From NCBI RefSeq assembly GCF_054482525.1, contig NZ_CM137006.1: a DNA stretch of 64,000 nucleotides. The stretch is one strand, 5' to 3'. A model generated the notes under the pieces. The model searched no databases and was not told where the DNA came from. It saw only the letters and a list, made by a program, of their open reading frames with translations. The position numbers and the translations under genes were made by a program. Below are positions 3,537 through 48,315 of the stretch, in pieces. Within the stretch, counting starts at the first letter, position 1. Every line of letters starts with the position of its first letter.

Positions 3537-4370
3537 CTAGTACATTCGACGGCTAAGGCCCATGATATCGAGGATCTTGGTGGCAATCTCTTCTACCGAA
3601 TAATTGGTACTGTTAATCCACGGGATCTGATTTTTACGGTACAAGGCTTCTACTTCCGCGACTTCCATCCTGCACTGACGAAGCGAGGCATAGCGACTGT
3701 TCTCCCGACGTTCTTCGCGAATCGCCGCCAGACGTTCCGGGTCGATAGTCAGGCCGAACAATTTATGCTGAAGCGGTTTGAGCGACGCGGGTAGCACCAG
3801 ATTATCCATATCGTCGGCAATAAAGGGGTAGTTTGCCGCGCGGATACCAAATTGCATTGCCAGATACAGACTGGTGGGGGTTTTACCACAGCGAGAAACG
3901 CCGAGCAGGATCACCTGAGCCTGGTCCAGATTGCGTAACGAAATGCCATCATCGTGGGCGAGGGTGTAATCAATCGCAGCAATGCGCGCATCATATTTAT
4001 TGAGATTATTAGGGTTAAGGCCATGGGTACGATGAGCAATCGGCGTGGGATCCAGTTTCATCTCTTGTTGTAGCGGGGCAACCAGCGCCTGAACGATATC
4101 CTGGCAAAAGCCTTCACTTTGCAAGATGATGGCGCGAATCTCCGGCAACACGATGGAGTAGAAGACCAGCGGGCGCACACCTGTCTGGTGATAAATTGCG
4201 TCAATCTGATCCTTCACTGCCCGTGCACGGCTCTCATTTTCGACAAACGGCAGCGTAATGCTGCTGATAGTGACGGGAAATTGTGACATTACTGCGTGTC
4301 CTAATACCTCCGCAGTTATTGCCGTACCATCAGAAATATAAAAAACGTGGCGATCAACAGCATTATCCAT
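3537..4370 (-). CDS. ppsR: PEP synthase regulatory protein (bifunctional kinase/pyrophosphorylase) PpsR/YdiA, 277 aa
   Basis: 277-aa ORF; divergent from ppsA as in K-12. Confidence 0.92.
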
Positions 4371-4600
4371 TTTGTTCTTCCCGTGATGCAGACATAATTC
4401 TATGAAAGCATAAATTAAAAACGCACAGAAGCGTAGAATGTTATGTCTGGTTTATAAAATGAACCTTCAATTTTATTATTTATGAAAACAGCATTTCATT
4501 TTTATGGTTTCGTTTATACCGATGGTTTATGTGGAAATTGTCGAATAGAGCAGGTTTGCGCAACGCTGGGATCAGTCTTAAAAAGTAAAAAAATATATTT

Positions 4601-4616
4601 GCTTGAACGATTCACC
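4601..4616. promoter_or_regulatory. Candidate Cra (FruR) operator upstream of ppsA
   Basis: gcttgaacgattcacc resembles the Cra half-palindrome TGAA-CG-ATTCA, ~90 bp upstream of the ppsA start; ppsA is a known Cra-activated gene. Confidence 0.35.
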
Positions 4617-4702
4617 GTTTTTTTCATCCGGTTAAATATGCAAAGATAAATGCGCAGAAATGTGTTTCTCAAACCGTTCATTTATCACAAAAGGATTGTT
4701 CG

Positions 4703-7081
4703 ATGTCCAACAATGGCTCGTCACCGCTGGTGCTTTGGTATAACCAACTCGGCATGAATGATGTAGACAGGGTTGGGGGCAAAAATGCCTCCCTGGGTGA
4801 AATGATTACTAACCTTTCCGGAATGGGTGTTTCCGTTCCGAATGGTTTTGCCACAACCGCCGACGCGTTTAACCAGTTTCTGGACCAAAGCGGCGTAAAC
4901 CAGCGCATTTATGAACTGCTGGATAAAACGGATATTGACGATGTTACTCAGCTTGCGAAAGCGGGCGCGCAAATCCGCCAGTGGATTATCGACACTCCCT
5001 TCCAGCCTGAGCTGGAAAACGCCATCCGCGAAGCCTATGCACAGCTTTCCGCCGATGACGAAAACGCCTCGTTTGCGGTGCGTTCCTCCGCTACCGCAGA
5101 AGATATGCCGGACGCTTCTTTTGCCGGTCAGCAGGAAACTTTCCTCAACGTTCAGGGTTTTGACGCCGTTCTCGTGGCAGTGAAACATGTATTTGCTTCT
5201 CTGTTTAACGATCGCGCCATCTCTTATCGTGTGCACCAGGGTTACGATCACCGTGGCGTGGCGCTCTCCGCCGGTGTTCAGCGGATGGTGCGCTCCGACC
5301 TCGCATCTTCTGGCGTGATGTTCTCCATTGATACCGAATCCGGCTTTGACCAGGTGGTGTTTATCACTTCCGCATGGGGCCTTGGTGAAATGGTCGTGCA
5401 GGGTGCGGTTAACCCGGATGAGTTTTACGTGCACAAACCGACACTGGCGGCGAATCGCCCGGCTATCGTGCGCCGCACCATGGGGTCGAAAAAAATCCGC
5501 ATGGTTTACGCGCCGACCCAGGAGCACGGCAAGCAGGTTAAAATCGAAGACGTACCGCAGGAACAGCGTGACATCTTCTCGCTGACCAACGAAGAAGTGC
5601 AGGAACTGGCAAAACAGGCCGTACAAATTGAGAAACACTACGGTCGCCCAATGGATATTGAGTGGGCGAAAGATGGCCACACCGGCAAACTGTTCATTGT
5701 GCAGGCGCGTCCGGAAACCGTGCGCTCACGCGGTCAGGTCATGGAGCGTTATACGCTGCATTCACAGGGTAAGATTATCGCCGAAGGCCGTGCTATCGGT
5801 CATCGCATCGGCGCGGGTCCGGTGAAAGTCATCCATGACATCAGCGAAATGAACCGCATCGAACCTGGCGACGTGCTGGTTACTGACATGACCGACCCGG
5901 ACTGGGAACCGATCATGAAGAAGGCATCTGCCATCGTCACCAATCGTGGCGGTCGTACCTGTCACGCGGCGATCATCGCTCGTGAACTCGGCATTCCGGC
6001 GGTAGTGGGCTGTGGTGATGCAACAGAACGGATGAAAGACGGTGAGAACGTCACTGTTTCTTGTGCCGAAGGTGATACCGGTTATGTCTATGCGGAGTTG
6101 CTGGAATTTAGCGTGAAAAGCTCCAGCGTAGAAACGATGCCTGATCTGCCGTTGAAGGTGATGATGAACGTCGGTAACCCGGACCGTGCTTTCGACTTCG
6201 CCTGCCTGCCGAACGAAGGCGTCGGCCTTGCGCGTCTGGAATTTATCATCAACCGTATGATTGGCGTCCACCCACGCGCACTGCTTGAGTTTGACGATCA
6301 GGAACCGCAGTTGCAAAACGAAATCCGCGAGATGATGAAAGGTTTTGATTCTCCGCGTGAATTTTACGTTGGGCGTCTGACTGAAGGGATCGCGACGCTG
6401 GGTGCCGCGTTTTATCCGAAGCGCGTCATTGTCCGTCTCTCTGATTTTAAATCGAACGAATATGCCAACCTGGTCGGTGGTGAGCGTTACGAGCCAGATG
6501 AAGAGAACCCGATGCTCGGCTTCCGTGGCGCGGGCCGCTATGTTTCCGACAGCTTCCGCGACTGCTTCGCGCTGGAGTGTGAAGCAGTGAAACGTGTGCG
6601 CAACGACATGGGGCTGACCAACGTTGAGATCATGATCCCGTTCGTGCGTACCGTAGATCAGGCGAAAGCGGTGGTTGACGAACTGGCGCGTCAGGGGCTG
6701 AAACGTGGTGAGAACGGGCTGAAAATCATCATGATGTGTGAAATTCCGTCCAACGCCTTGCTGGCAGAGCAGTTCCTCGAATATTTCGACGGCTTCTCAA
6801 TTGGCTCAAACGACATGACACAGCTGGCGCTCGGTCTGGATCGTGACTCCGGCGTGGTGTCTGAACTGTTCGATGAGCGCAACGATGCGGTGAAAGCACT
6901 GCTGTCGATGGCGATTCGTGCCGCGAAGAAACAGGGCAAATATGTCGGGATTTGCGGTCAGGGTCCGTCCGACCACGAAGACTTTGCCGCATGGTTGATG
7001 GAAGAGGGGATCGATAGCCTGTCTCTGAACCCGGATACCGTGGTGCAAACCTGGTTAAGCCTGGCTGAACTGAAGAAATAA
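4703..7081 (+). CDS. ppsA: Phosphoenolpyruvate synthase PpsA, 792 aa
   Basis: 792-aa [37 protein letters not shown]; PEP-utilising enzyme family. Confidence 0.95.
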
Positions 7082-20843: not shown

Positions 20844-21200
20844 TTAACAAAGGCGCTCCAGATCGTGTGCATATAATTCAGCGGCTACCGATTGATAGAT
20901 CTTCCAGTCAATAAAATTGCCATCAGGGTAGACACGTTGAAACGCGGTTAAGTCGGGGAAAAAACGCATGGTGTTGTTGCCGATGCGGTTATTTATTTTC
21001 TCTATGATGGCATGAAGATGTTTTTTTCGTTGCTGTCGCATAGCCAACAGTTGCTCGACCACACGATCAGGAATGGCGCATTTGCCATTTTCCCACTGAC
21101 GCCAGCTTTCATTGTCACCGGTCTGGGCAATCCAGGTCGCGCATTCATCAATAGTCATAGCAAAAATATGGCGAAGAGCCTGGAGTTCATAAGCGTTCAT
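20844..21200 (-). CDS. ydiL: Uncharacterised protein YdiL, 118 aa
   Basis: Internal start MNAYELQALRHIF gives 118 aa; this is the gene next to rprA in K-12. Confidence 0.8.
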   Translation of the reverse strand: MNAYELQALRHIFAMTIDECATWIAQTGDNESWRQWENGKCAIPDRVVEQLLAMRQQRKKHLHAIIEKINNRIGNNTMRFFPDLTAFQRVYPDGNFIDWKIYQSVAAELYAHDLERLC

Positions 21201-21337
21201 CGTGTAATGGCTGCATGAAATAAACAATAAAATATAAATAACATTATCAGCCTGCCGACGGCTTGAAGAGAGTCACAGTATCTTGTGCAACATTATTGGA
21301 AAGCGTGAGGGGCGAGGTAGCGAAGCGGAAAAATGTT

Positions 21338-21407
21338 AAAAAAAAGCCCATCGTGGGAGATGGGCAAAGACTACACACAGCAATTCGTTGTTTCACTCAG
21401 GGGATTT
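21338..21407. repeat. Left attachment-site direct repeat (duplicate of the rprA 3' end and terminator, 70 bp)
   Basis: Identical to 32979-33048: aaaaaaaagcccatcgtgggagatgggcaaagactacacacagcaattcgttgtttcactcaggggattt. Confidence 0.9.
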
Positions 21408-21424
21408 AAGTCATTGATTGATTT

Positions 21425-22054
21425 ATGGGTATGCGGTTTTTCGGCATAAACCAAATTAAGCAAGGCTTGAAAATGGACACACAAATTGCACACATATCGC
21501 ACACAAATAAAAAGGGGTATGTATGGCGCAAGCGTTATGAAAAACGCACGATTGAAATCATCCTACGCACCCGTGATAAATCAATTGCCATAAAAAGAGC
21601 GGCATCAATAACAATTCGCTATATGGAATTAAAATCACTTGACGTTCCATTTAAAGCAATGCTGGAAATGTTAAAAAAGTTTCGTGATGGTCTGATTACG
21701 TCACATGACATTGAGCGCTTAAGGTCGATTGCGATAGCTTCACAGGAAGCTCCACACGCCGCTGTAACCGCTTCGCCTATACAAAGTGTTGGCTATGATG
21801 TCAAAACCGCTCAGAAAGCCGCACAGGGGCATTCCCTTGGCGATGCTCAAAAAGTGTACTTTGGCGCCAACACCGAATGGAAAGAAAAAACCATCAAGGC
21901 TTATTCTGGTTGTATCGACCGCTTTATTTTATGGTGCGCTAATAAAAATATTCATACCGTGGAAGAAATAACGAAAGAGCATGTGATTTCATTTAAATCC
22001 AGCATGGATGAAGAAAAATTAGCCTCCATGACTAAATTTCGCATAATAATATGA
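21425..22054 (+). pseudogene. Tyrosine-integrase-like N-terminal fragment (core-binding/SAM-like region only, catalytic domain missing)
   Basis: 209-aa ORF; the segment KTIKAYSGCIDRFILWCANKNIHTVEEITKEHVISF resembles an integrase core-binding domain; no R..HxxR..Y catalytic region follows; sits next to the att repeat. Confidence 0.4.
21477..21509. repeat. Three tandem ~11-bp repeats (acacacaaatt / gcacacatatc / gcacacaaata), candidate integrase arm-type sites, left end
   Basis: Direct tandem repeats ~70 bp inside the left att repeat; a matching triplet lies ~70 bp inside the right repeat. Confidence 0.5.
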
Positions 22055-22362
22055 TTCGGGTTAGCATAACCAATACTTTTATTAAAGCCTATGTATGCAC
22101 CAATTTCTTTATACTTTAACTTAGTGAAATCTGAAATAATACTCAGTGGCTGCAATACGTTATGTCCATTGTGCGCCCCTTCATTAGCGCAAAATCCTGT
22201 ATTTGCAAACTGACCTTTATCACGCCAGATGAATCTATCAACGCCGCCACATACAGGACATGGTGTATGTTCATTTGGTTTAATATCAATTCCAAAATCA
22301 TTCATATGCACCAATGGATTCTTTTTAATATAATTATTCAAATCAGTAAAGAAATTAGCCAT
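21952..22362 (-). pseudogene. DNA primase zinc-ribbon domain fragment (Toprim and downstream domains absent)
   Basis: Motif HTPCPVCGGVDRFIWRD typical of primase Zn-ribbons; ORF stops soon after; its 3' end overlaps the convergent integrase fragment. Confidence 0.45.
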
Positions 22363-22681
22363 TATATTTGCTCCCGTATCGCCTTGCTGGATGCTTTGCA
22401 AAGAAATCAACGATATCTTGTTTGCGATACCAGATATAACCGTCTAATTCATGATGAATTTCTTGCGGAAATTCTTTAGGGTTAAAGCGTTTGGCGGCAT
22501 AAAACATTGGTTTAGTAACACCAGATAAAGCAATTGCATCATTGCCACACACAAGCCCTGTAAGTTGCACTTTCTGCGATTGTTCTTTTATCTGTGCCGC
22601 GATTAGCCTTTTATTCTCATTAACGTATTTTTCAATCTGTAGCTTACGCATTTTTTCGCGCATGTAATTTATATCGGTCAT
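22355..22681 (-). CDS. AlpA/Xis-like small DNA-binding protein, 108 aa
   Basis: C-terminal region FYAAKRFNPKEFPQE...YIWYRKQDIVDFF resembles the AlpA-family FPK...W..R..DI..W pattern. Confidence 0.45.
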   Translation of the reverse strand: MTDINYMREKMRKLQIEKYVNENKRLIAAQIKEQSQKVQLTGLVCGNDAIALSGVTKPMFYAAKRFNPKEFPQEIHHELDGYIWYRKQDIVDFFAKHPARRYGSKYNG

Positions 22682-22697
22682 TTTAGTATCCTATATA

Positions 22698-24200
22698 TTA
22701 AGTCATTATCTGTGCTGGTGGGGTAATGATATGAATTATCCCTCGATTATTCATAATGAATCTACATCGTTCAAGCCCTGTAATTGCTCGCTTTATATTA
22801 TTTGGCTGCATTTTATACTCAGTTTTTAATGCCTTCGTTAAATCGGATTCATGTACACAGCCATCAGCACTAAATTCCATTAACTGTATTATCATTTCTA
22901 AAACTCGTTCTTGTGCTGGTGCATTTTTCTTTTTTAACTCGCTCATATATGAGTCGTAAGCGAGAGTATTATTACGCGCAGCATTTTGAGTAAAATTAAC
23001 TCCTGCTTCATATGATTCTGCATTTACAGCGTTTTGCATTAATTGCTTATTTTGCTGTTGCGTTGTTAGTGGTTGCCGCTGTTGCGTGTGCATTTGCGCA
23101 TAATCATTTATCGGTGATTGCTGCATGATAAATGGTTCATCATTAGCTTGTTTGCGTTCTATTTTTCCTGCTGCAATTACTGGAGTTGGCCTATCAATAA
23201 ATACCAACGTCTTAGTATTGGCGTTTACCTGATAACCTTTTGCATTTTCTTCGGGATAATCGCATAATTCATTATTAATATCATGTAATTCACAGACGGT
23301 AATTCCGTTATCCGCTGTGCATAAATCAAATTGCATCACTGGTAATTTTGCAGCGCTACGGTTTTTTTCGATAGTGAGTGATACGGATAACCCAAAATCA
23401 TTACCCTGCATTTGCTCTAGTTTAATGACTGTATCAGAGTCATTTTTAAGGGTAATGGCTCCTTTCATACCTTTAGCCGCATCTTTGCCGCCGTGGTGAA
23501 CCATCAAGACAAAAGAATTTGTTTCTACTGCAATTCTTTTCAAAATCGAAATCAGCTTACGCATTGCAATAGCATCATTTTCATCAGGATTTTCCATATC
23601 CAAAATGGTTTTTCCATCAATGCTTTTTTTTGTGTAGTATGCCAAAAATGAAGAAAGCGTATCAAAACAAATGATGCCGCCTTTGTTATTGGTGATTTTA
23701 TTTACATCATTTATTATTCGATTCTGTATTTCTTTATCAAATAAGTTTATTTGTGGTGACAAGATGTGCATTCTGTCATTTTTAACGCCACTATTAAACT
23801 TATTAGACCACGCTGTATTTCGATCTTTGATTTCAACGCCTGTTTCACCATCAAAATAAAAAGCATGGCATTCTTTAGCAACTCGCAAACCAGCCCACGG
23901 TTTACCCTGTGCAACTCTGTTTAAAAGAGATAATGCCGCAAATGATTTGCCTGTGTTGGATTCACCATAAAGGAAGCCGACCTGTTTTCGGTTAAATAGA
24001 TTTTCAATTACAGGGCGTAACCGCTTTTCTGATTGCAATTGAATTTCAGCTAATTCAATTGCACACAATTCATCATTTATACCATCATATTCAGACCACT
24101 CACCGTAGTTGGCGGGTGCGTAATAATCAATCGCGAGAGTGTAATAATAATCAGGAATAGCAGACCAATCAATAAACATTCCTGTGCACATATCATTCAC
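22698..24200 (-). CDS. RecA-like (RepA/AAA_25-type) replication ATPase, 500 aa
   Basis: Walker A GESNTGKS near residue 80; hydrophobic strand plus HHGGKD Walker-B-like region; Q/N-rich linker and C-terminal domain; flanked by AlpA-like genes and iterons. Confidence 0.55.
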   Translation of the reverse strand: MNDMCTGMFIDWSAIPDYYYTLAIDYYAPANYGEWSEYDGINDELCAIELAEIQLQSEKRLRPVIENLFNRKQVGFLYGESNTGKSFAALSLLNRVAQGKPWAGLRVAKECHAFYFDGETGVEIKDRNTAWSNKFNSGVKNDRMHILSPQINLFDKEIQNRIINDVNKITNNKGGIICFDTLSSFLAYYTKKSIDGKTILDMENPDENDAIAMRKLISILKRIAVETNSFVLMVHHGGKDAAKGMKGAITLKNDSDTVIKLEQMQGNDFGLSVSLTIEKNRSAAKLPVMQFDLCTADNGITVCELHDINNELCDYPEENAKGYQVNANTKTLVFIDRPTPVIAAGKIERKQANDEPFIMQQSPINDYAQMHTQQRQPLTTQQQNKQLMQNAVNAESYEAGVNFTQNAARNNTLAYDSYMSELKKKNAPAQERVLEMIIQLMEFSADGCVHESDLTKALKTEYKMQPNNIKRAITGLERCRFIMNNRGIIHIITPPAQIMT

Positions 24201-24247
24201 CGTAATTTGGGTATTTAATTAAGAAAAATTCAATTACTTCTTCTTTT

Positions 24248-24400
24248 TTATATAGATGCTTTGTTTTTTTTGTTTTTATCGCAAGTAACTAAATGCTCTT
24301 TTGGAAATTCTTTAGGGTTAAAACGTTTAGCCATATAAAAAGCGGTTGAGCCAATTTTAGCCAAAAGTTGTGCTTCACGAGGTGTAATTAAGTCGCTCAT
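24248..24400 (-). pseudogene. Second AlpA-like fragment (50 codons), partial duplicate of the 22355-22681 gene
   Basis: Translation MSDLITPREAQLLAKIGSTAFYMAKRFNPKEFPKEH... shares the FY-AKRFNPKEFP motif with the downstream AlpA-like gene; weak RBS; not in the ORF track (<60 aa). Confidence 0.3.
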
Positions 24401-24750
24401 GTAGGGTATCTCTTAGATGTATTCTGAGTGCGGTCATGGTAGGCGAGGGGAGGAATAGCGGCAAGCATTACCGGATATAGTAAGCACTACCAGCTAAAGT
24501 CTAACTAACTGTCAACAGATTGAGGCTAAAACCACTGTATGTAAATTCAATTTTAAAAATTAAAAATCATTCTGGCTTAACTAATTATGCTCAATTTAAA
24601 TTGAATCTGATAATAAAAAGAATCAATAAAATGGATTTAGTGATTTTTAGTTGGACGAAATCGTTCATTTTATGTGCATTGCTCGCTGGTGATAATTCAA
24701 CCAATCCATTCAACCTATTCGAATGGGTGGTGAATTTTTGACCGAATTAA

Positions 24751-24920
24751 ATTCACCTGAATATTCACCGAATGATTCACCTGAATCATTCAGCCCTTCA
24801 TTCACCACGAAACCCAGGCGCGGCGGGGCTTACAGGCCGATTCATTCACCTGAATATTCACCTGAATATTCACCTGAATTATTCAACCAAAAATTCACCT
24901 TCATATTCACTCATTCACCT
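24751..24920. repeat. Iteron array: two clusters of three 12-bp tandem repeats (ATTCACCTGAAT) plus degenerate copies
   Basis: Units at 24751, 24763, 24775 and at 24844, 24856, 24868 with further TTCACC copies; lies upstream of the Rep ATPase operon. Confidence 0.6.
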
Positions 24921-24957
24921 CTCTATAAATAAGCATTGGAATGCTTTTTATAGAGGT
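24921..24957. other. Long near-perfect inverted repeat (ctctataaataagcatt gg aatgctttttatagag), hairpin or operator
   Basis: About 16-bp arms with a 2-nt loop, T-run on one side; lies between the iterons and the ner-like gene. Confidence 0.4.
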
Positions 24958-25236
24958 TGATGAATGAAGGTCGTTCAAGTGAATGAACTGTGAGTTGGGT
25001 AAACCCCTAGGGGTTGGGGGTGTTGTCGATTTGTGGTAAATTCCTTCTGCCAGCGTGAAAAAGGCGCTGGTGGGGATTTGCAGCCCCAAACAAACAAAAC
25101 CATTGGCAAGGAATTGCCGATGCGCGTGCGCACGTCAGTTATGGCGGTCACGGCGAGGGAGTCGAAAGGCTCGCCAGTTTTGTTTGTTTGCTGGTACTGC
25201 AAACCTCGTCGTGATCGTCACCACGGGGATGCATGT

Positions 25237-25488
25237 ATGCAGGAAACAGACTGGCACAAAGCGGATATTCTTGCCTCTTTAAAGAAAAAGAAAATCAGCA
25301 TGGCGGGATTATCCCGTGAACATGGTTTATCAAGTAGCACGTTGCTAAATGCACTTAGTAGAGAATGGCCTAGAGGCGAATTAATTATTGCTAATGCAAT
25401 TGGTGTGTCACCTCAAGAAATATGGCCTTCTAGGTATTTTGAAAAAGATGGCTCTCCAAAAAATCGTGTGATTCGTAAACCTGTTTAA
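25237..25488 (+). CDS. Ner/Nlp (SfsB)-family HTH DNA-binding regulator, ~83 aa
   Basis: MQETDWHKADILASLKKKKISMAGLSREHGLSSSTLLNALSREWPRGELIIANAIGVSPQEIWPSRY closely resembles Ner/Nlp; I prefer the internal ATG at 25237 over the 151-aa ORF start. Confidence 0.6.
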   Translation: MQETDWHKADILASLKKKKISMAGLSREHGLSSSTLLNALSREWPRGELIIANAIGVSPQEIWPSRYFEKDGSPKNRVIRKPV

Positions 25489-25705
25489 ATAAGTCAATGC
25501 GTCTCTGATTAAAAGGGGCGCATTTTTGTTTTTACTGACTTGTTGCAATGTGGGATATGTTGCGCACGTGTGTGCGATAGTTGTTAATTGTTTTTTGTAC
25601 TAGTTAACAAATACGAATTTTCTGAGGGTGCTATTTTGGGTTTTAGCTGCGGCTTCGCCTTGCTGCCCTTCGGGCTGGTGGTGCAAGAAGAATGTTTGAA
25701 AACTT

Positions 25706-25751
25706 CCTTTTCTTTGCTTCACCAGCCCCGTAGGGGCGTGAGCGTAGCGAA
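25706..25751. repeat. 46-bp direct repeat, copy 1 (ccttttctttgcttcaccagccccgtaggggcgtgagcgtagcgaa)
   Basis: Identical to 29912-29957; contains a gcccc-gta-ggggc hairpin; ~100 bp upstream of the 383-aa gene. Confidence 0.85.
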
Positions 25752-25849
25752 CCTAATCACTTTGATTTTGACACATATCGGTTCTATCATTTTCAGGAAA
25801 ATCATCATAGAATTATATAAAACATACGATTTTTAAGGTGAATTTTTAA

Positions 25850-27001
25850 ATGCACGAGAAAGCGCAAACAAAAATAAAAGATACTATTAGAGAAATACTA
25901 ATCACTCCAGCAATCGCTTTTACTGGTCGTGCAGGTCATTTTGATTTTTCATTATATGAAGTTTTAGCAAATGAGCTTAACAAAAGAAAGATAAAGTTTA
26001 AAATTGATAAATTATCATGTTGGATTATTTTTGATGGCGCAAAAAAACATTACTTTCAAGATAAATCAATTACTGACGCACAAGCGATAAATGATTTTGT
26101 GGATACGTTATGTAGTATTTACTGTGAAACACCTATGGATTACTCCATCGATTTTCACTTTAGAAATTTAAAAATCGATATCAACCCGATTGATTATGAG
26201 TTTGTTTCAATTAGAGCGGGTGAGGATATTGGTATTGGTTTGTTCGCTGAAAAAGAAAAGTATGCGATTGCGAGCATTAAAAAGAATGGCTATCTTTCAG
26301 GTGGTTATCCTAGCTCATTTATAAAATCGATTTTGCAAGATTTGAAAATCTTCATTTTTTTGATTAAAAGCATTAATTTGATTAAGACAGGAAAAACCAA
26401 TTTAGCATCCACGTTATTTCAATCGATGTCCGGTCATGCTGACACAATTAAGATTGATTGCGTTAATGTTAAATATCCTTGGATGAATAGCAGTGTCCAT
26501 ATTTCAGAGTCGGTAGGGAAATTTTTACACAACTTTATCTTCAATTATGAATTTGAAGAAGGCTACATTATAGAAAAAATAGATCATTCGCTTCAGCTAA
26601 TGAATGCAATAGTAAAAGATGAGTCAAAAGAAGCCTTGCGTATCAAGGCTGCAATTGATTGGTTGGTGCAATCTGAAATCACTGATGATGAAACCATGTC
26701 TTTTATTCAAATTTGCATGGGGCTTGAATCAATTTTTGGTGATGATGATTATGAGGGTGGCCTAACAAACATACTATCTGATAGATGCGCCTACTTAATA
26801 GGGAATAAAATTAAAGAGAGGAGATTTATAAAGGACACATTTAAAAAAATATATCAAGTTAGGTCAAAGATAGTGCATGGCGTAAGAAATCATTTATCAG
26901 ATGATGAATTATATTTTAGGCATTTAGCATATTCATATTTAGAGCGTTCTATTCTAAAAGAAATTCAAAATTTAGACCTGCAATCCCATCAGGCGACGTG
27001 A
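25850..27001 (+). CDS. Hypothetical protein with C-terminal HEPN-like R-x4-H-G motif, 383 aa
   Basis: AGGTGA RBS 8 nt upstream; C-terminal ...KKIYQVRSKIVHGVRNH matches the R-x4-6-H signature of HEPN RNases; strongly AT-rich. Confidence 0.4.
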   Translation: MHEKAQTKIKDTIREILITPAIAFTGRAGHFDFSLYEVLANELNKRKIKFKIDKLSCWIIFDGAKKHYFQDKSITDAQAINDFVDTLCSIYCETPMDYSIDFHFRNLKIDINPIDYEFVSIRAGEDIGIGLFAEKEKYAIASIKKNGYLSGGYPSSFIKSILQDLKIFIFLIKSINLIKTGKTNLASTLFQSMSGHADTIKIDCVNVKYPWMNSSVHISESVGKFLHNFIFNYEFEEGYIIEKIDHSLQLMNAIVKDESKEALRIKAAIDWLVQSEITDDETMSFIQICMGLESIFGDDDYEGGLTNILSDRCAYLIGNKIKERRFIKDTFKKIYQVRSKIVHGVRNHLSDDELYFRHLAYSYLERSILKEIQNLDLQSHQAT

Positions 27002-27236
27002 AGCTTGTGCGCTTCATTATGGGGCTAGCCGCCATCAGGCAAGGCGATTGCATGTCTTTGCGCTTCGTCGCCTCCTGATGCGTTCTGTGAAGATGTCGAT
27101 CATTTAGTGAGCGCGGCGGATGTTGCTGATGGATAGTGTGGATGCAACTGAACCATACCGCGAAAAGTGGCAGGATTGCGCCGGAATCGTACCGCTAGCA
27201 GGTGTTGAGTGTAAGAAGTAGTGATTGGGTGAAATG

Positions 27237-27275
27237 AAGATAGAAGGCCGCATAGAGGCATACAACTAGCCTTAT
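27237..27275 (-). terminator. Hairpin downstream of the lipoprotein gene (candidate terminator)
   Basis: ccgcata...tatgcgg stem followed, on the minus strand, by a T-rich tract. Confidence 0.35.
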
Positions 27276-27288
27276 GCGGTTGGCTGGT

Positions 27289-27732
27289 TCAGCACTGGTA
27301 AAAGTTGGCGAGGTGTGGAATATGGCTGGTGGTGGTTTCGAAAGCCTTGAGGCGTCCATTTTTATCTTTTTTCAAGTAGAGCATTTTTAGTGCTGGTGGA
27401 AATACTGAATCCATAATTCCATAAACTCCCACATTTTCGTTTTCTTCTTTAAGCATTCCCCAATATTGATAACCATTTAATGCGCTATCATCAATGCCCG
27501 TTCCAACGCGCTTAATGTGGGCAAGATATCGGCCTTTTATCGTAAAGCTAAATGATTCATCACGTTCATTTGTGCAAGTGTAAAATCCATCATCGCTTTC
27601 ATTTATAACTTCAGATGCTTCACGATTTAATGAGTACTTGTCTAAGTTGTTTATGATGTCACTTCGCTGTGCGCATCCAGTCAAATTTAGAATGGTAAAA
27701 ATTAGTACAGAAGATGCAAGATATTTGTTCAT
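27289..27732 (-). CDS. Predicted lipoprotein, ~147 aa
   Basis: N-terminus MNKYLASSVLIFTILNLTGC carries a signal peptide with lipobox LTGC; internal ATG at 27732 preferred. Confidence 0.55.
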   Translation of the reverse strand: MNKYLASSVLIFTILNLTGCAQRSDIINNLDKYSLNREASEVINESDDGFYTCTNERDESFSFTIKGRYLAHIKRVGTGIDDSALNGYQYWGMLKEENENVGVYGIMDSVFPPALKMLYLKKDKNGRLKAFETTTSHIPHLANFYQC

Positions 27733-27818
27733 TTTGATTATCCATATGAAAAGCAAGGTACTTAGATTAAATTACCCTGCTTAAGCAGTAATTAGCGGTT
27801 CCGTTAATAGAGGGTAGA

Positions 27819-28178
27819 TTATTTGTTAATTTGTTTTTTAGTGTGTGAGATAAAATTTCTAAGTAAATCTTTTTCAATTACAATTTCACATTTTAGGTTT
27901 TGGCTATCGACCGCATCAATTCTATCAAACCAAAACATTAATTCCTGGCTTGCATCGCATTTACGTTTGAATTTAATTGCCCTGCCGAATTTTTCACTTA
28001 AAGAATCATCATCACATAAAAAATAAATTTTATTATTAATGGTGATTTGAATTAAATATGTCTTCCTCGTTAGGTAATCTAACCTTTCGTTAGCTTTCAG
28101 TAAGTTAGCTTCAGCTTGTTTGATGCGTATAAGAGCATCCTCTTTGCTTAAAGGGGATGTATTGACAGACTTGATCAT
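27819..28178 (-). CDS. Hypothetical protein, 119 aa, upstream partner of the lipoprotein
   Basis: AAGGA RBS 8 nt upstream of the ATG; co-oriented with the lipoprotein gene, 86-bp gap. Confidence 0.5.
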   Translation of the reverse strand: MIKSVNTSPLSKEDALIRIKQAEANLLKANERLDYLTRKTYLIQITINNKIYFLCDDDSLSEKFGRAIKFKRKCDASQELMFWFDRIDAVDSQNLKCEIVIEKDLLRNFISHTKKQINK

Positions 28179-28287
28179 AATTTAATCCTTTGGTTAAGAT
28201 TCATCAAAAATATGCCATAAATAGCCTTGAAGGTTGTGTGGAATACATATTATGATAGCTTCATCTAATCAGCAAGGGGAATAATAG

Positions 28288-28443
28288 ATGCCTTCTAAAC
28301 GTGTTATATGCTCACTTGATGAGCAAGAGTTAGATATTCTCGAAAAATATAAATTACATTATAAAAATATGCATGGCGTAAAATTAAACAGAACGGCAAT
28401 TATCAAAATGTTGATTAGTCGTCTATCAAAAGAAATTCAATAA
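28288..28443 (+). CDS. Ribbon-helix-helix (Arc/CopG-like) small DNA-binding protein, 51 aa
   Basis: MPSKRVICSLDEQELDILEKYKLHYKNMHGVKLNRTAIIKMLISRLSKEIQ shows a beta-strand/helix/helix pattern; GGGGA RBS; divergent from the 27819-28178 operon; below ORF-track length cutoff. Confidence 0.45.
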   Translation: MPSKRVICSLDEQELDILEKYKLHYKNMHGVKLNRTAIIKMLISRLSKEIQ

Positions 28444-28495
28444 TAATTCTAATTACCAATTAATTTAAACTTCACATAATTAAAGAGGCAACTCT

Positions 28496-28810
28496 ATGCA
28501 CACTCTTTTTTCTAAATTTAAAAACAGGAAAATTAAAATGTATCAACCACGTTATAAAAGCAGAATGATTGACGATAATGAATATAATCAGGTGCTTCAA
28601 TCGAGAATGCAAAATCTTTTAAATCAATATAATAATGAGGTTTCAAACTTAACCCGCATTGGTGTTACAAATTTGGGTTTCGGCCGATGGGATAATGGAG
28701 AGAGCAAAATCAATAACCACGTTAATAAAGTAAGTGAGACTTTGGAAAAGATGCAATCTACGCAAGCCTTGATTGATGCTCTTGCAAATGAAATTACACA
28801 AACTAATTAA
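28496..28810 (+). CDS. Hypothetical protein, 104 aa
   Basis: AAGAGG RBS 8 nt upstream; no recognisable motif. Confidence 0.45.
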   Translation: MHTLFSKFKNRKIKMYQPRYKSRMIDDNEYNQVLQSRMQNLLNQYNNEVSNLTRIGVTNLGFGRWDNGESKINNHVNKVSETLEKMQSTQALIDALANEITQTN

Positions 28811-28894
28811 TCGAATGGGGGATGCTTTAAATGGTAATCGCAATCATGGTTGTAATGTTTTGGGCTTTCCTGATTCTTAAAGAGGAAATGAAAT

Positions 28895-29179
28895 ATGGTT
28901 AAATTTGGAGTGTTTTACCATCATGCATGGGGTGATGGTAAAAAGGAAATCCCGCCACCTGATTTAAATTACATCCGAACCGATCCACATAAAAATAATG
29001 AAATTGCTTTAGATGTTTTTGATTCAAGAATGGACGCACAAAAACGCGCTGATTTACTAAATTCACGCATGGCAAAAAATCAAACTGGTCAGCATTATGT
29101 TGCGCCAACAACGCAAGAAACCAAAACGGCTCAAAAGCGCTTTAAGTTTCCTTGTACTAGCATTTATGGGTGGAAATGA
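28895..29179 (+). CDS. Hypothetical protein, 94 aa (paralog family A)
   Basis: AGAGGA RBS; N-terminus MVKFGVFYHHAWGDG is similar to the next gene's N-terminus. Confidence 0.45.
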   Translation: MVKFGVFYHHAWGDGKKEIPPPDLNYIRTDPHKNNEIALDVFDSRMDAQKRADLLNSRMAKNQTGQHYVAPTTQETKTAQKRFKFPCTSIYGWK

Positions 29180-29181
29180 AA

Positions 29182-29556
29182 ATGAGTAAACAATTCGGTG
29201 TTTTCTTTTGGCGAAAAGGTGACGCTATTACCGATATCCCGTCAGATAAAAATGTTGCAAATCGCGGAGTAAAGCCTAAGCGCATTTTTTCAGATTATAT
29301 TGATGGAATGCGATATAAAGATAAAATGAATGCAACAATTCCAGCGGCGCAAAAAGGTAAATATGAATATGTATTAGCGGAAATTGTTGAACCAGACCCG
29401 AACAATACAAAGGTGTTGTTTAAATCTGGAAATTTAACAGAAGCATTAAGGGCGAAGCGACAAACAACCGAACAAATCAACCGAAATAAAATTGATGCAA
29501 TGATTAAAGAAGCCGCACACGATTACCTTTACACTATTACAGGAATGGAAAAATGA
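29182..29556 (+). CDS. Hypothetical protein, ~124 aa (paralog family A)
   Basis: N-terminus MSKQFGVFFWRKGDA parallels the upstream gene; GGTGGA RBS; start at 29182 preferred over 29170. Confidence 0.45.
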   Translation: MSKQFGVFFWRKGDAITDIPSDKNVANRGVKPKRIFSDYIDGMRYKDKMNATIPAAQKGKYEYVLAEIVEPDPNNTKVLFKSGNLTEALRAKRQTTEQINRNKIDAMIKEAAHDYLYTITGMEK

Positions 29557-29852
29557 TTATTGACGAGCGATTTATTAAATGGTCAATGGTGCTGGTGGAG
29601 GCCGGAAAGCCATCACCCAGCCTCGCGGGGCTTTATAAAGGAAACACTAAAGGATTAATCTTTTATAAAACACGTGAATTGGCATCAAATGCAGCCACTA
29701 AACGGAATGAGCAATTAGCAGGAACTAAATCAACCAGCCGATTTAAAATCATTAAATTGCATGACGCAGAAGCACAACAGAAACATGATTTTCAGTTAAA
29801 ACAGGAACGCCAGCGCCGCGATGCACGCCATATGCGCCGATTTGGTTTCTAA
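29553..29852 (+). CDS. Hypothetical basic protein, 99 aa
   Basis: 4-bp ATGA overlap with the upstream gene suggests translational coupling; Lys/Arg-rich C-terminus. Confidence 0.4.
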   Translation: MIIDERFIKWSMVLVEAGKPSPSLAGLYKGNTKGLIFYKTRELASNAATKRNEQLAGTKSTSRFKIIKLHDAEAQQKHDFQLKQERQRRDARHMRRFGF

Positions 29853-29911
29853 ATATAACTCAATAACTCAACCAATGGTGATGTTAAAGAATAAGGTGGC
29901 CTTAAATTTCA

Positions 29912-29957
29912 CCTTTTCTTTGCTTCACCAGCCCCGTAGGGGCGTGAGCGTAGCGAA
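29912..29957. repeat. 46-bp direct repeat, copy 2
   Basis: Identical to 25706-25751; 37 bp upstream of the tape-measure-like gene. Confidence 0.85.
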
Positions 29958-29993
29958 ATAAGTAACATTAATATCAAATCAGAGGTAAATAAA

Positions 29994-31982
29994 ATGGCAG
30001 GTGAAAATGCTCAATTGGGCTTTTCCGTCGATACATCGGAAGTGGAAACAGCATCAAAAAGGCTTAATGAATTAGCTAAATCAGCGCAAGGGGCGGCTGA
30101 TTCGGCTGGCAAATTATCAGATTCATTTGAGGAAAGTATGAAGGGTGTTAATTCATCAATTACTTCCAATCATCAGGCTATGCGCGAATTAACGGTAATG
30201 ATGCACGAAGCAATGTCTGGTAATTGGTCGCGCTTGCGTGGTTCTGCAATGATTATGGGCGGCGCATTGGGATTTGGTGGATTAACTAGCGGTGCGGTAG
30301 TTGGTGGAATTACGCTTGTTTCGGAAGGCATTGAATCGCTAATTGAAGGAATGCGAGAAGCTCAAAAAGCAGAAACTGAATTAAATAATTCTGCTGTAAT
30401 TACAGCAGATGTAAGCCTTTTAAATAGTGATTATGTTGATTCACTTACTATTGGTTATGAGAAATTAGGCTATTCAGCAACACAAGCAAAAGGCATGATT
30501 GCAGCGTTAAGTAATGCGGGTATGTTTGGTGATGAATTTAGTGTTGCAGGTAAACAAATTGCCGCACTATCTAAAGCGTTAGGCGGTAATTCAGACGAAC
30601 AAAAAAAATTAGCTGGTCAATTTGGTGGCTTGTATTCTGACCCGCTAGGACACGTTAACGAATTTTTCCAAGTAACAAACGGATGGATTACCAAAACCGA
30701 ACAAAACCGAATTAATGCGGCTGAACAATCGCATAATTCAGCACAAGCTGAAATGGCTATGCAAGAAGCGCTATTAGATGTTTATAAGCGTCAAACCGAT
30801 ATGCTACAGCTTAAAGCCTATTTGGAAACTAACGCCGCTACATATTCAGCCTTTCAGACGCGCGAACAATTCGGCAGCGCATGGGGTAAGGGCGAAAAAG
30901 AAAAGGCAGACGCATTTATCAAGCAATATGACGAGCGCCAGCAATCATTTAATCAGGGCGTTGAAAAGCTAAAAGGAAGCATTCACGAAACAGGACGCCA
31001 GATAAGGGAAAATGTAGAAGAATTTAATAAAGGAATGCATCCCCATAAAGTGCATACACACCACGGATTAACAGCAATTGAGAAAGCAGCTAAACAATTG
31101 GTGACCTACCAAACCCAAATTAAACAGGCTGGTTTGCAATTTGACCAGCAAATTAATTCAATTGGTGATTCAGTAAATAATGCGTGGAGTAATAAATTAT
31201 ACTCTTATTCAATGTCTTCTGACCAGAATGATTTTGCAAACCGAATTGAACAAATCAATGAACAATTCGACCGTATGCGCGAAAATGTAGACCGTTTGGC
31301 GCTGCAACATCATAAATCAATTGGTTCAAAAGAATATGTTGAAATGTTCCAAAAAATCGAATTAGGGCGCAAAAACGTATTGGCTGAAAACGTTGCTGGA
31401 TTTAATGAAATGGAGTCATTGCAGCATTCAGCGCTGGCGGGAATGGATGAGGGATGGATTAAATACCAGAAGCAGGTTAATGATGTTGCAAGCCAATCAG
31501 AGAAAGTTTTTGATACGGCTGTTGAGGGAATGACAAATTCATTAACTGATTTCTTTACAACTGGTGAGGCTGGTTGGACTAATTTTGTAAAATCAATCGC
31601 AACAATCACTGAAAAATACATGGTTCAAGATTGGATTGTTGAGCCGCTAGCAGGATTAGTAAAAGGGGGGATTAGCTCGCTATTTTCATCAAATCCATTG
31701 AGTTCAACGGCTAACACTTTTGCCGTTCCCGATATTCCAAAATTGGGCGCAACTCATTTAGGAGGCGGTCTAGGTTCGACCGCACCAGTTATCAATATCA
31801 CCATTAATGACAATGGCAACAAAGGCGGCGTTGATAGCAATGTTAGCGGCACAACAGGGCAAGTACAAAAAATGGGGGCGGCGCTAGATAAATTCCTGCA
31901 AAACTATATCAAAGAGCAAAACGTAAAATCCAACCGTCAGGGCGGGTTAAACAAAACAATGGGGAACTGGTCGACAAGATAA
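29994..31982 (+). CDS. Phage tail tape-measure protein homolog (lambda gpH-like), 662 aa, orphan
   Basis: Glycine-rich hydrophobic segment MIMGGALGFGGLTSGAVVGGITLV near the N-terminus, long helical middle, C-terminal FDTAVEGMTNSLTDFFTTGEAGWTNFVKSI and ...VINITINDNG matching, from memory, the lambda H C-terminal region; AGAGGT RBS. Confidence 0.6.
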   Translation: MAGENAQLGFSVDTSEVETASKRLNELAKSAQGAADSAGKLSDSFEESMKGVNSSITSNHQAMRELTVMMHEAMSGNWSRLRGSAMIMGGALGFGGLTSGAVVGGITLVSEGIESLIEGMREAQKAETELNNSAVITADVSLLNSDYVDSLTIGYEKLGYSATQAKGMIAALSNAGMFGDEFSVAGKQIAALSKALGGNSDEQKKLAGQFGGLYSDPLGHVNEFFQVTNGWITKTEQNRINAAEQSHNSAQAEMAMQEALLDVYKRQTDMLQLKAYLETNAATYSAFQTREQFGSAWGKGEKEKADAFIKQYDERQQSFNQGVEKLKGSIHETGRQIRENVEEFNKGMHPHKVHTHHGLTAIEKAAKQLVTYQTQIKQAGLQFDQQINSIGDSVNNAWSNKLYSYSMSSDQNDFANRIEQINEQFDRMRENVDRLALQHHKSIGSKEYVEMFQKIELGRKNVLAENVAGFNEMESLQHSALAGMDEGWIKYQKQVNDVASQSEKVFDTAVEGMTNSLTDFFTTGEAGWTNFVKSIATITEKYMVQDWIVEPLAGLVKGGISSLFSSNPLSSTANTFAVPDIPKLGATHLGGGLGSTAPVINITINDNGNKGGVDSNVSGTTGQVQKMGAALDKFLQNYIKEQNVKSNRQGGLNKTMGNWSTR

Positions 31983-32043
31983 TATTATGTTGCTTAGTAA
32001 GTCTAAACTTTACGCCCTAATTAGGGCGTTTTATTTAAAAAAG

Positions 32044-32661
32044 TTAATTTGCTGTATTTTCTCTCATCTTTCTAAGTTCTGGCAATACTTTCTTATAGAA
32101 TTTCGTAGTGGAATCAGCGCAGTAGTTTTGCAGATACTTATAGTTTTCTTCAAATTTAGGGAGATCTTTAGCTACCGTCAATTGCTTTGGTAAAGTTCCG
32201 GTAGCATCATCGGTTATATCAAATGTTATTGAATTATGTTTTCGATCTTCATTAACTTTTTTTAAAGTGGCAACAATAGGGCTTTTATCCATAGAACCAT
32301 CTATTAGTTGGCGAACTTGAAACTTCCTTGGGATTATAAAATTAATTACTGACGGAGGTTCACTATTTAATGTTATATTCCAAGTTATTGGCATAGCATC
32401 ACATAAACCTTCAGATATTATTTCACCATCAATTGAACCATCAGAATTGGCGATAAATTGTATTATAACAAGTGGTTGATCTTTATTTAAGCCAAGATCT
32501 CCACTATTTATTATATATTCAGCGTCTGTCGACCATTTGCCTGTTAGAAATTCTTTTTGATAAAGTGCTTCATTTATTTCACCTCTATATGGTAAATATA
32601 GACCTATAGCACCAATTGCAACACCTAATACAGTGCATATTGTTGTTATTCGTCCACTCAT
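32044..32661 (-). CDS. Membrane-anchored hypothetical protein, 205 aa
   Basis: N-terminal hydrophobic helix ITTICTVLGVAIGAIGLYLPY; AT-rich; at the island edge. Confidence 0.45.
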   Translation of the reverse strand: MSGRITTICTVLGVAIGAIGLYLPYRGEINEALYQKEFLTGKWSTDAEYIINSGDLGLNKDQPLVIIQFIANSDGSIDGEIISEGLCDAMPITWNITLNSEPPSVINFIIPRKFQVRQLIDGSMDKSPIVATLKKVNEDRKHNSITFDITDDATGTLPKQLTVAKDLPKFEENYKYLQNYCADSTTKFYKKVLPELRKMRENTAN

Positions 32662-32875
32662 ATCACACTCGTTATCTTATCCTTGTTGTAGTTAAGCATT
32701 TTATTTTATTTTTTTATTGTGAAAATGGCTAGTTTTAGTTGGGTCTTGCGCTGAATCTAACGAGTGCTTACCCCGTGAAGTGATTTATGATTAAAGTTCG
32801 TTTTGTTTTTGGTTAAAAAATGAACATGTGAGTGCTTTGGAAAATTTCTGTAACACTCACCTGATTTACGCTGGT

Positions 32876-46346: not shown

Positions 46347-47759
46347 TTACAGGACGTGAACAGATGCGGTGTTAGTAGTGCCGCTCGGTACCAGTGCACC
46401 AGAAACCATAACTACAACGTCACCTTTGTGTGCCAGACCGCTCTGCAGAGCCAGTTCTTTACCCAGACGGTAGAAATCATCAGTAGAAGTGATCTCTTTA
46501 ACCAGCTGCGGCACAACGCCTTTGCTCAGTACCAACTGATGAGCCGTTTTTTCGTTGGTGGTCAGTGCCAGGATGGTGGCATCCGGGAAGTATTTACGTA
46601 CTGCGCGAGCAGATTTACCGCCCTGGGTAGCAACCACGATCAGCGGAGCATCCAGTTTTTCAGCAGTTTCAACGGCACCACGGCATACCGCTTCGGTAAT
46701 GCGCAGTTTACGGTTGTCATTGTTGAACTCGAGACGGCTGTTCATCACGCGGTCGGTACGTTCGCAGATGGTCGCCATGATAGAAACCGCTTCCAGCGGG
46801 TATTTACCTTTTGCGGATTCACCAGACAGCATCACTGCGTCAGTACCGTCGAGGATGGCGTTTGCAACGTCACCGGCTTCTGCGCGAGTCGGGCGTGGGT
46901 TTTTGATCATGGAATCCAACATCTGGGTCGCAGTGATAACGACTTTACGTGCACGGATACATTTTTCGATCATCATCTTCTGGGCGAAGATAACTTCTTC
47001 TACCGGGATTTCTACACCCAGGTCGCCACGCGCAACCATGATGCCGTCAGAGGCTTCGAGGATTTCGTCGAAGTTGTTGAGGCCTTCCTGGTTTTCGATT
47101 TTGGAGATGATGTGGATGTTTTCGCCGCCGTGCGCTTTCAGGTGCTCACGGATTTCGATAACGTCAGAACGCTTACGAATAAAGGAAGCAGCAACAAAGT
47201 CAACGCCTTGTTCGCAACCAAAGATCAGGTCCTGTTTGTCTTTTTCAGCCAGTGCTGGCAGGGCAATGGAAACGCCTGGCAGGTTCACACCTTTGTTTTC
47301 GCCCAGGTCGCCGTTGTTCAGCACTTTACAGATAACTTTGTTACCTTCAATGGCGGTAACTTCCATACCGATCAGACCATCGTCAACCAGTACGGTGTTG
47401 CCAACAGACAGGTCAGTAGTGAAACCTTCATACGTTACCGCAACCATTTCGCTGTTGCCGATAACAGATTTATCAGTGGTGAAAGTAAAGGTCTGACCCG
47501 CTTTCAGAGAAACGTCGTTACCGCCTTCCAGTTTCATGGTGCGGATTTCCGGACCTTTGGTATCAAGCAGGATAGCGGCGGTTTTACCAGTTTTGCTCAT
47601 CACGTTGCGCAGATTCTGAATGCGCTGACCGTGTTCTGCATAGTCACCATGAGAGAAGTTCAGACGCATAACGTTCATGCCAGCGTCCAGCATTTTAGCT
47701 AACATCTCTTCAGATTCGGTTTTCGGTCCGATGGTGCAAACAATTTTGGTCTTTTTCAT
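46347..47759 (-). CDS. pykF: Pyruvate kinase I PykF, 470 aa
   Basis: Internal [41 protein letters not shown] gives 470 aa; the longer ORF-track start is not credible. Confidence 0.95.
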
Positions 47760-48315
47760 GACAGTCTTAGTCTTTAAGTTGAGAAGGATGGGAGAAACTT
47801 GCTTTCTGGGCGCACTGCCGGAAAGCGAATCCGGTATTACGAAAGTGGTGGTGCCTCGCTCTAAGGATAGGTGACATCGAAAAAGCGTGCAGAGGAATGT
47901 GTGCTTGTGTCTCAGCCCAACGTGAGTGCCTGTTTTTGAGTCGTTGAGTTCTACAGTCCAAAGTGCTGAAACCATTCAAGAGTCAATTGGCGCGCATTAT
48001 ACGCTGAAATTAATCCAAAAGGAAAACAAAAACAGCGTTTCAAAAAATATACAACTTGTTAGACAATAAATTGTTATCAAAGATTTAACGTTCCAGGGAA
48101 AAGGTTACGCAAAAACTTCGCTGTTTGCGCAACGTCTGGTGCCGGGGTTGTCAGTGTGAGGATAAGTGAGAGTTCATCCGGTGTATAAATACATCATCGC
48201 TCAATTGCTACAGTGAAAATAATTTATCGCGTTATTTGTCTGATTTTGTTTGGTTTTTGTTTAATTGGTTAGATTGATATATGCTGATAGTTGGCATGAT
48301 AAATAGGTATAAAGA

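Follow-up and report, generated by a model that had tools for sequence, protein, structure and literature searches.

The ppsR-ppsA intergenic region and the Cra (FruR) operator of the ppsA promoter

The intergenic region and its promoter elements

The window analysed here is a stretch of 64,000 nucleotides of contig NZ_CM137006.1 (assembly GCF_054482525.1). It contains ppsA (4703-7081, + strand), which encodes a PEP synthase of 792 amino acids (NCBIfam NF005057 and TIGR01418, E = 0), and its divergent neighbour ppsR (3537-4370, - strand), which encodes the PEP synthase regulatory kinase/phosphorylase of 277 amino acids (NCBIfam NF049928, PpsR, 2.1e-129); aroH and fadK are farther neighbours, beyond ppsR and ppsA. 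The divergent intergenic region (4371-4702, 332 bp) contains the 16-bp box gcttgaacgattcacc at 4601-4616 (+ strand reading, centre 4608.5), located upstream of ppsA with 86 nt between the box and the ATG. In the direction of ppsA the box is composed of the halves GCTTGAAC and GATTCACC, and the opposite strand reads GGTGAATCGTTCAAGC. The initial annotation had placed gcttgaacgattcacc in a divergent ppsR-ppsA gap and had called it a Cra (FruR)-like operator; the sequence is found exactly at 4601-4616, and both flanking genes are confirmed by NCBIfam.

No canonical ppsA promoter was found by a scan for consensus sigma-70 promoters; the ppsA promoter is visible only through conservation. In a MAFFT alignment of the intergenic regions of 18 Enterobacteriaceae, columns T269/G270, A273 and T277 (window positions 4639-4640, 4643 and 4647) are invariant, and these columns correspond to the TG, to hexamer position 2 (A, at -11) and to hexamer position 6 (T, at -7) of an extended -10 element, TGcAAAGAT (4639-4647, + strand), in which the TG occupies -15/-14 and the hexamer AAAGAT occupies -12 to -7. 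When 40 Enterobacterales sequences are anchored on the box, the pattern TGC-nAGnnT recurs 22-23 nt downstream of it (22 nt in E. coli). With a 17-bp spacer, the -35 position is occupied by TTTTTT (4619-4624, + strand), which matches TTGACA at two of six positions and is essentially no -35 element at all; a T-run at this position is conserved in Enterobacteriaceae. The combination of TTTTTT at -35 with the absence of any ppsA promoter from the sigma-70 scan fits an activator-dependent promoter, and the features expected of such a sigma-70 promoter (an extended -10, a poor -35 and an upstream activator site) are all found here, in so far as they can be recognized from sequence.

Transcription of ppsA is predicted to start at the G at 4654 (+ strand), 7 nt after the -10 hexamer, with an uncertainty of 1-2 nt; a literature search for a mapped ppsA start site returned nothing usable. 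With a start at 4654, the box spans -53 to -38 and is centred at -45.5, which is the published figure. This centre follows from the end of the box being 22 nt before the extended -10, provided that transcription begins 7 nt past the hexamer. The box is immediately preceded by a conserved A/T-rich tract (4578-4600, + strand, about -76 to -54), of which columns C207, A210-A213 and T230 (window positions 4577, 4580-4583 and 4600) are invariant in the 18 genera; an A-rich consensus upstream of the box also appears in the anchored comparison of 40 species. This tract may possibly serve as UP-like DNA for the alpha-subunit C-terminal domain of RNA polymerase.

The 5' untranslated region of ppsA ends with CACAAAAGGATTGTTCG (4686-4702, + strand), which includes the Shine-Dalgarno sequence AAGGA (4691-4695), and columns A321-G328 within the untranslated region are invariant or nearly so among the 18 Enterobacteriaceae. 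The near-invariance of CACAAAAGGATTGTTCG across Enterobacteriaceae goes beyond what a Shine-Dalgarno sequence alone should need. Its ACAnnGGA context resembles the GGA motifs bound by CsrA, which we offer as an idea only. A scan of 4300-4800 against Rfam at E<=1 found no RNA family.

Two further conserved blocks are located in the half of the intergenic region that is proximal to ppsR. One is AT-rich (4456-4505) and contains the inverted repeat ATGAAA-N6-TTTCAT (4482-4499), which overlaps with the promoter-like match found on the strand of ppsR (4499-4470); this block could be the ppsR promoter or a site for an unassigned regulator. The other, ATGAAAGCATAAATTAAAA (4402-4420), shows strong conservation in most of the 18 Enterobacteriaceae. 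It precedes the start codon of ppsR by 32-50 nt and presumably belongs to the 5' untranslated region or promoter of this gene.

Motif matches and identity with the published operator

On the minus strand, the 14-mer GGTGAATCGTTCAA (4603-4616) agrees at 14 of 14 positions with the asymmetric Cra consensus RSTGAAWCSNTHHW, which is said to derive from Ramseier (1995). The window contains four matches to RSTGAAWCSNTHHW where 0.51 would be expected, and four or more were obtained in only one of 100 shuffles; the number expected per 150-bp promoter region, derived from the expectation for the window, is about 0.001. Two of the four matches are at known Cra-regulated promoters, those of ppsA and pykF (46347-47759, - strand). 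Part of the excess in the window is thus due to the pykF match, GCTGAAACCATTCAAG at 47965-47980, about 205-220 nt upstream of the start codon, which is very probably the known pykF Cra operator. Like the ppsA box, the pykF operator fits the same consensus and is located upstream of a Cra-regulated gene of central carbon metabolism, but Cra acts as a repressor of pykF and as an activator of ppsA (PMC5555440). The remaining two exact 14-mer matches, ACTGAATCCATAAT (27404-27417) in an unannotated 155-aa ORF of a strain-specific region and AGTGAAACCTTCAT (47418-47431) inside the pykF coding sequence, are probably due to chance. The sign of control by Cra is set by the place of the operator, either upstream of the promoter or else overlapping it or downstream of it (Saier and Ramseier 1996).

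Compared with the ideal palindrome GCTGAATCGATTCAGC, the ppsA box has four mismatches (12 of 16 positions agree) and one perfect half, TGAATCG. A search of the window with GCTGAATCGATTCAGC at three or fewer mismatches missed the ppsA box, and the asymmetric consensus was needed to find it; the palindromic motif gcTGAAtCGaTTCAgc and Cra motifs from ChIP-exo are quoted in PMC5888115. By a simple weighted score, six positions in the window reach or exceed the score of the ppsA box, versus 2.4 +/- 1.6 in Markov-simulated sequence, and the five positions other than the box are mostly intragenic. Because of the four palindrome mismatches and the six positions that reach this score, resemblance to the Cra motif by itself is weak and only suggestive, and the case for a Cra operator rests on position, conservation and literature rather than on the motif score.

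The intergenic region is 99% identical to that of E. coli K-12 MG1655, and its last 148 bp, comprising the box and the core promoter, are identical. The four SNPs that distinguish the two sequences (alignment columns 69, 108, 176 and 184) are all at least 47 bp upstream of the box, which by alignment corresponds to NC_000913.3 1787199-1787214. The published operator OppsA, ggtgaatcgttcaagc (Table S5 in the supplement of PMC9948231), is the exact reverse complement of 4601-4616, and confers Cra control on synthetic promoters built with it (PMC9948231). In comparison with the Cra operator of K-12 ppsA (OppsA; Negre et al. 1998, J Mol Biol 276:355), which has the same 16 bp in the same 148-bp context, no difference is detectable in the site, the promoter context or the inferred centre at -45.5. 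Full-text literature searches with 16-, 14- and 12-mers of the operator returned no match, and those with 10- to 12-mers returned only unrelated primers. The initial annotation had proposed comparison with the mapped K-12 site, a different position of which would have told against it; the mapped site proved to have the same sequence and the same inferred centre, and the reading of the box as consistent with known Cra activation of ppsA is borne out by the identity of the published operator and of the K-12 promoter sequence. Thus a real 16-bp operator had been placed to the base from raw sequence. We conclude with high confidence that 4601-4616 is the operator of the ppsA promoter for Cra (FruR), a regulator of the LacI/GalR family. 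It is already known and unchanged from K-12, and nothing about it is new.

Farther from ppsA the window departs from K-12: the distance between ppsA and pykF is 43.1 kb here and 31.4 kb in K-12. About 11.6 kb of extra DNA (window about 21000-32700) is located between the two genes, and the offset between window and K-12 coordinates, valid near ppsA, fails farther on because of it. Among the ORFs scanned around about 21000-32700, four of six had no NCBIfam family, and in one of the other two (29994-31982, 662 aa) a domain resembling phage tail tape-measure proteins scored below the family cutoff, which suggests that the extra DNA is a prophage remnant or island.

Conservation in the Enterobacterales and within E. 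coli

A single scan of species-representative genomes with residues 1-250 of PpsA as the query yielded 80 loci, of which 40 are from Enterobacterales (among them Escherichia, Citrobacter, Enterobacter, Kluyvera, Pluralibacter, Erwinia, Pectobacterium, Brenneria, Serratia, Rahnella, Yersinia, Photorhabdus, Xenorhabdus, Providencia, Edwardsiella, Budvicia and Arsenophonus) and 40 are from other gammaproteobacteria (among them Shewanella, Pseudoalteromonas, Colwellia, Idiomarina, Rheinheimera, Alteromonas and Tolumonas). The most constrained part of the operator is its promoter-proximal, consensus-like half-site CGATTCACC (4608-4616; GGTGAATCG on the - strand), which is present upstream of ppsA with no more than one mismatch in 40 of 40 Enterobacterales loci, with this invariant half toward the promoter. 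The distal half-site is variable and degenerate (GCTTGAA, GCTTACA, GGTTGAT, GCTGGAT). The best Cra-like sites in Enterobacterales score 18-23 of 26, versus 13-19 for coding-sequence controls. Among the 40 loci outside the Enterobacterales, no consistent Cra-like site was found upstream of ppsA, and scores were no better than those of the coding controls. Closer to E. coli, the alignment of 18 Enterobacteriaceae intergenic regions has a mean column identity of 68% and 50 invariant columns; 13 of these are among the 16 columns of the box, which is the longest invariant block.

Divergence of ppsR and ppsA was observed in 78 of 78 checkable loci, with an intergenic length of 160 to 643 bp in Enterobacterales and mostly about 100-170 bp outside the order. 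Because this arrangement is shared outside Enterobacterales and the box is absent there, the sequence comparison indicates that the Cra box is an order-specific addition to an older ppsR-ppsA pair. An order-specific expansion of the FruR regulon has reportedly been described already; a literature search for a comparative paper on the FruR regulon that mentions ppsA found none.

The same conserved divergence, together with the location of the box in the shared intergenic region, would fit a box that also or instead controlled ppsR, so that PEP synthase and its regulatory kinase/phosphorylase would be expressed in a coupled way. The distances are against it, for the start codon of ppsR is 231 bp away, the sole promoter-like match on the ppsR strand (4499-4470) has the box about 110-145 bp upstream of it, and across the Enterobacterales the spacing from the box to the -10 of ppsA stays at 22-23 nt despite the several-fold variation in intergenic length. 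Control of ppsR is unlikely because the distance of the box is fixed with respect to the -10 of ppsA and varies several-fold with respect to ppsR; moreover, PMC7897506 and PMC5555440 describe the promoter only as activating ppsA.

A pseudo-palindrome of 16-18 bp with CG at its centre is common to operators of the LacI family, and PdhR and CRP have both been reported by genomic SELEX to target ppsA, so that the box might be thought to belong to another LacI/GalR-family regulator or to PdhR or CRP. This is very improbable, as TGAATC is the half of the consensus that is specific to Cra and neither the PdhR consensus (ATTGGTnnnACCAAT-like) nor the CRP consensus (TGTGAn6TCACA) matches at 4601-4616. 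The PdhR box reported by genomic SELEX for the ppsA/ppsR region is AGTTGGTTATACCAAAG, and ppsA mRNA is more than 2-fold lower in a pdhR mutant (PMC7660256); this box differs from the Cra box in sequence and in place. It occurs exactly at 4733-4749 (- strand), inside codons 11-16 of ppsA rather than in the intergenic region. The window has no more CRP-like matches than chance would give (214, versus 236 expected), and a CRP site in the intergenic region was considered and rejected, none of the matches overlapping the box and the nearest (4530-4545) having three mismatches. Finally, despite the four palindrome mismatches and the five other positions with scores as high or higher, the idea that the box resembles the Cra consensus by chance and regulates nothing can be set aside as extremely improbable, given that the box is identical to a functional operator, that it is conserved in 18 genera within a region of much lower identity, that its proximal half-site is kept at a fixed distance from the -10 in all 40 Enterobacterales species, and that so few consensus matches are expected per promoter region.

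Within E. coli the operator of ppsA is almost unvarying. The intergenic region is present in 5420 of 5426 complete genomes of this species, to which the window belongs. By megablast, 5358 of 5426 have the 40 bp around the box without change, and of a 30-mer consisting of the box with 7 nt on each side, 28 or more contiguous bases are matched exactly in 5365 of 5426, so that about 55 of the 5420 genomes that have the region lack a 28-base exact word around the box. The 90-bp core is identical in 4187 genomes and slightly different in 1231. SNPs inside the box were considered as the reason why about 57 genomes are absent from the 40-mer megablast, but the variants sampled have indels or SNPs in the flanks instead: five of five variant strains keep the box, and their differences are confined to the A-tract or the T-run. 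The sites of flank variation among E. coli are the A-tract at 4580-4593 and the T-run at 4618-4624. Between the box and the -10, the T-run is T7 here and in K-12, T6 in SCU-485 and T5 in isolate ecoli019. These differences in length may be genuine or may reflect misassembly of homopolymers; if genuine, they change the position of the Cra box with respect to the promoter by 1-2 bp.

Predicted control of ppsA by Cra

The model that follows is the established one and has the best support; what it says of binding by Cra, of activation, of the part played by the alpha C-terminal domain and of the response to effectors comes from literature on the identical sequence. At low glycolytic flux (growth on acetate or pyruvate), effector-free Cra would bind the 16-bp pseudo-palindrome and would sit about 45.5 bp upstream of the ppsA start, immediately upstream of the would-be -35. 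The core promoter should be weak on its own because its extended -10, TGcAAAGAT, is combined with essentially no -35 (TTTTTT). Bound Cra would bend the DNA and help the alpha C-terminal domain to engage, which would yield more PEP synthase for gluconeogenesis. On glycolytic sugars, fructose-1-phosphate (F1P) or, more debatably, fructose-1,6-bisphosphate (FBP) would release Cra, and ppsA expression would drop. The cra gene is far from ppsA on the E. coli chromosome, outside the window, and a cra/fruR gene is expected in the same genome from the identity of the species.

The published data on E. coli FruR at ppsA agree with several of these steps. As described in PMC7897506, citing Negre 1998, FruR is a class I activator of ppsA with an operator centred at -45.5, where it makes the alpha C-terminal domain of RNA polymerase bind more strongly; F1P interferes with binding of FruR at the promoter; and ppsA transcription persists without FruR. 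The signal of the native ppsA promoter is 16-fold higher on acetate than on glucose, and a ppsA promoter whose Cra site had been scrambled was used as a constitutive control (PMC5555440). Whether the physiological effector of Cra is F1P or FBP is debated, according to PMC4050194. The orthologous FruR of Vibrio cholerae is also a transcription activator, at the fru promoter, where it binds between -35 and -10 in a MerR-type mode and needs F1P (PMC7897506). In contrast, the E. coli protein binds at -45.5 at ppsA, works by way of the alpha C-terminal domain and is hindered in its binding by F1P (PMC7897506).

The asymmetry of the operator sets it apart from other members of its class. Generic operators of the LacI/GalR family, such as lacO and the PurR boxes, are 16-bp pseudo-palindromes with a central CG step that are bound by a dimeric protein with a helix-turn-helix and a hinge helix, and they usually serve to repress by occlusion. 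The ppsA box differs from these in being placed to activate and in being markedly asymmetric, with one consensus half and one degenerate half. It is conceivable, though doubtful, that the invariant proximal half, the degenerate distal half, the A/T tract as DNA for the alpha C-terminal domain and the extended -10 at 22-23 nt form a fixed composite module across the Enterobacterales, in which asymmetry and spacing are required for activation. If this were true, the variants of E. coli that differ in the length of the A-tract or the T-run would tune the output of ppsA.

Read simply as the Cra operator of ppsA, the box is a textbook element of the control of carbon flux in E. coli, and it has already been used in engineered biosensors of glycolytic flux (PMC9948231, PMC5555440). 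The present check serves mainly as a calibration, for which the pykF promoter in the same window is a positive control of the motif. Its modest added value is the comparative picture, in which the box, its orientation and its distance from the -10 are kept in the sampled Enterobacterales, and this arrangement is absent from other gammaproteobacteria that share the ppsR-ppsA gene order.
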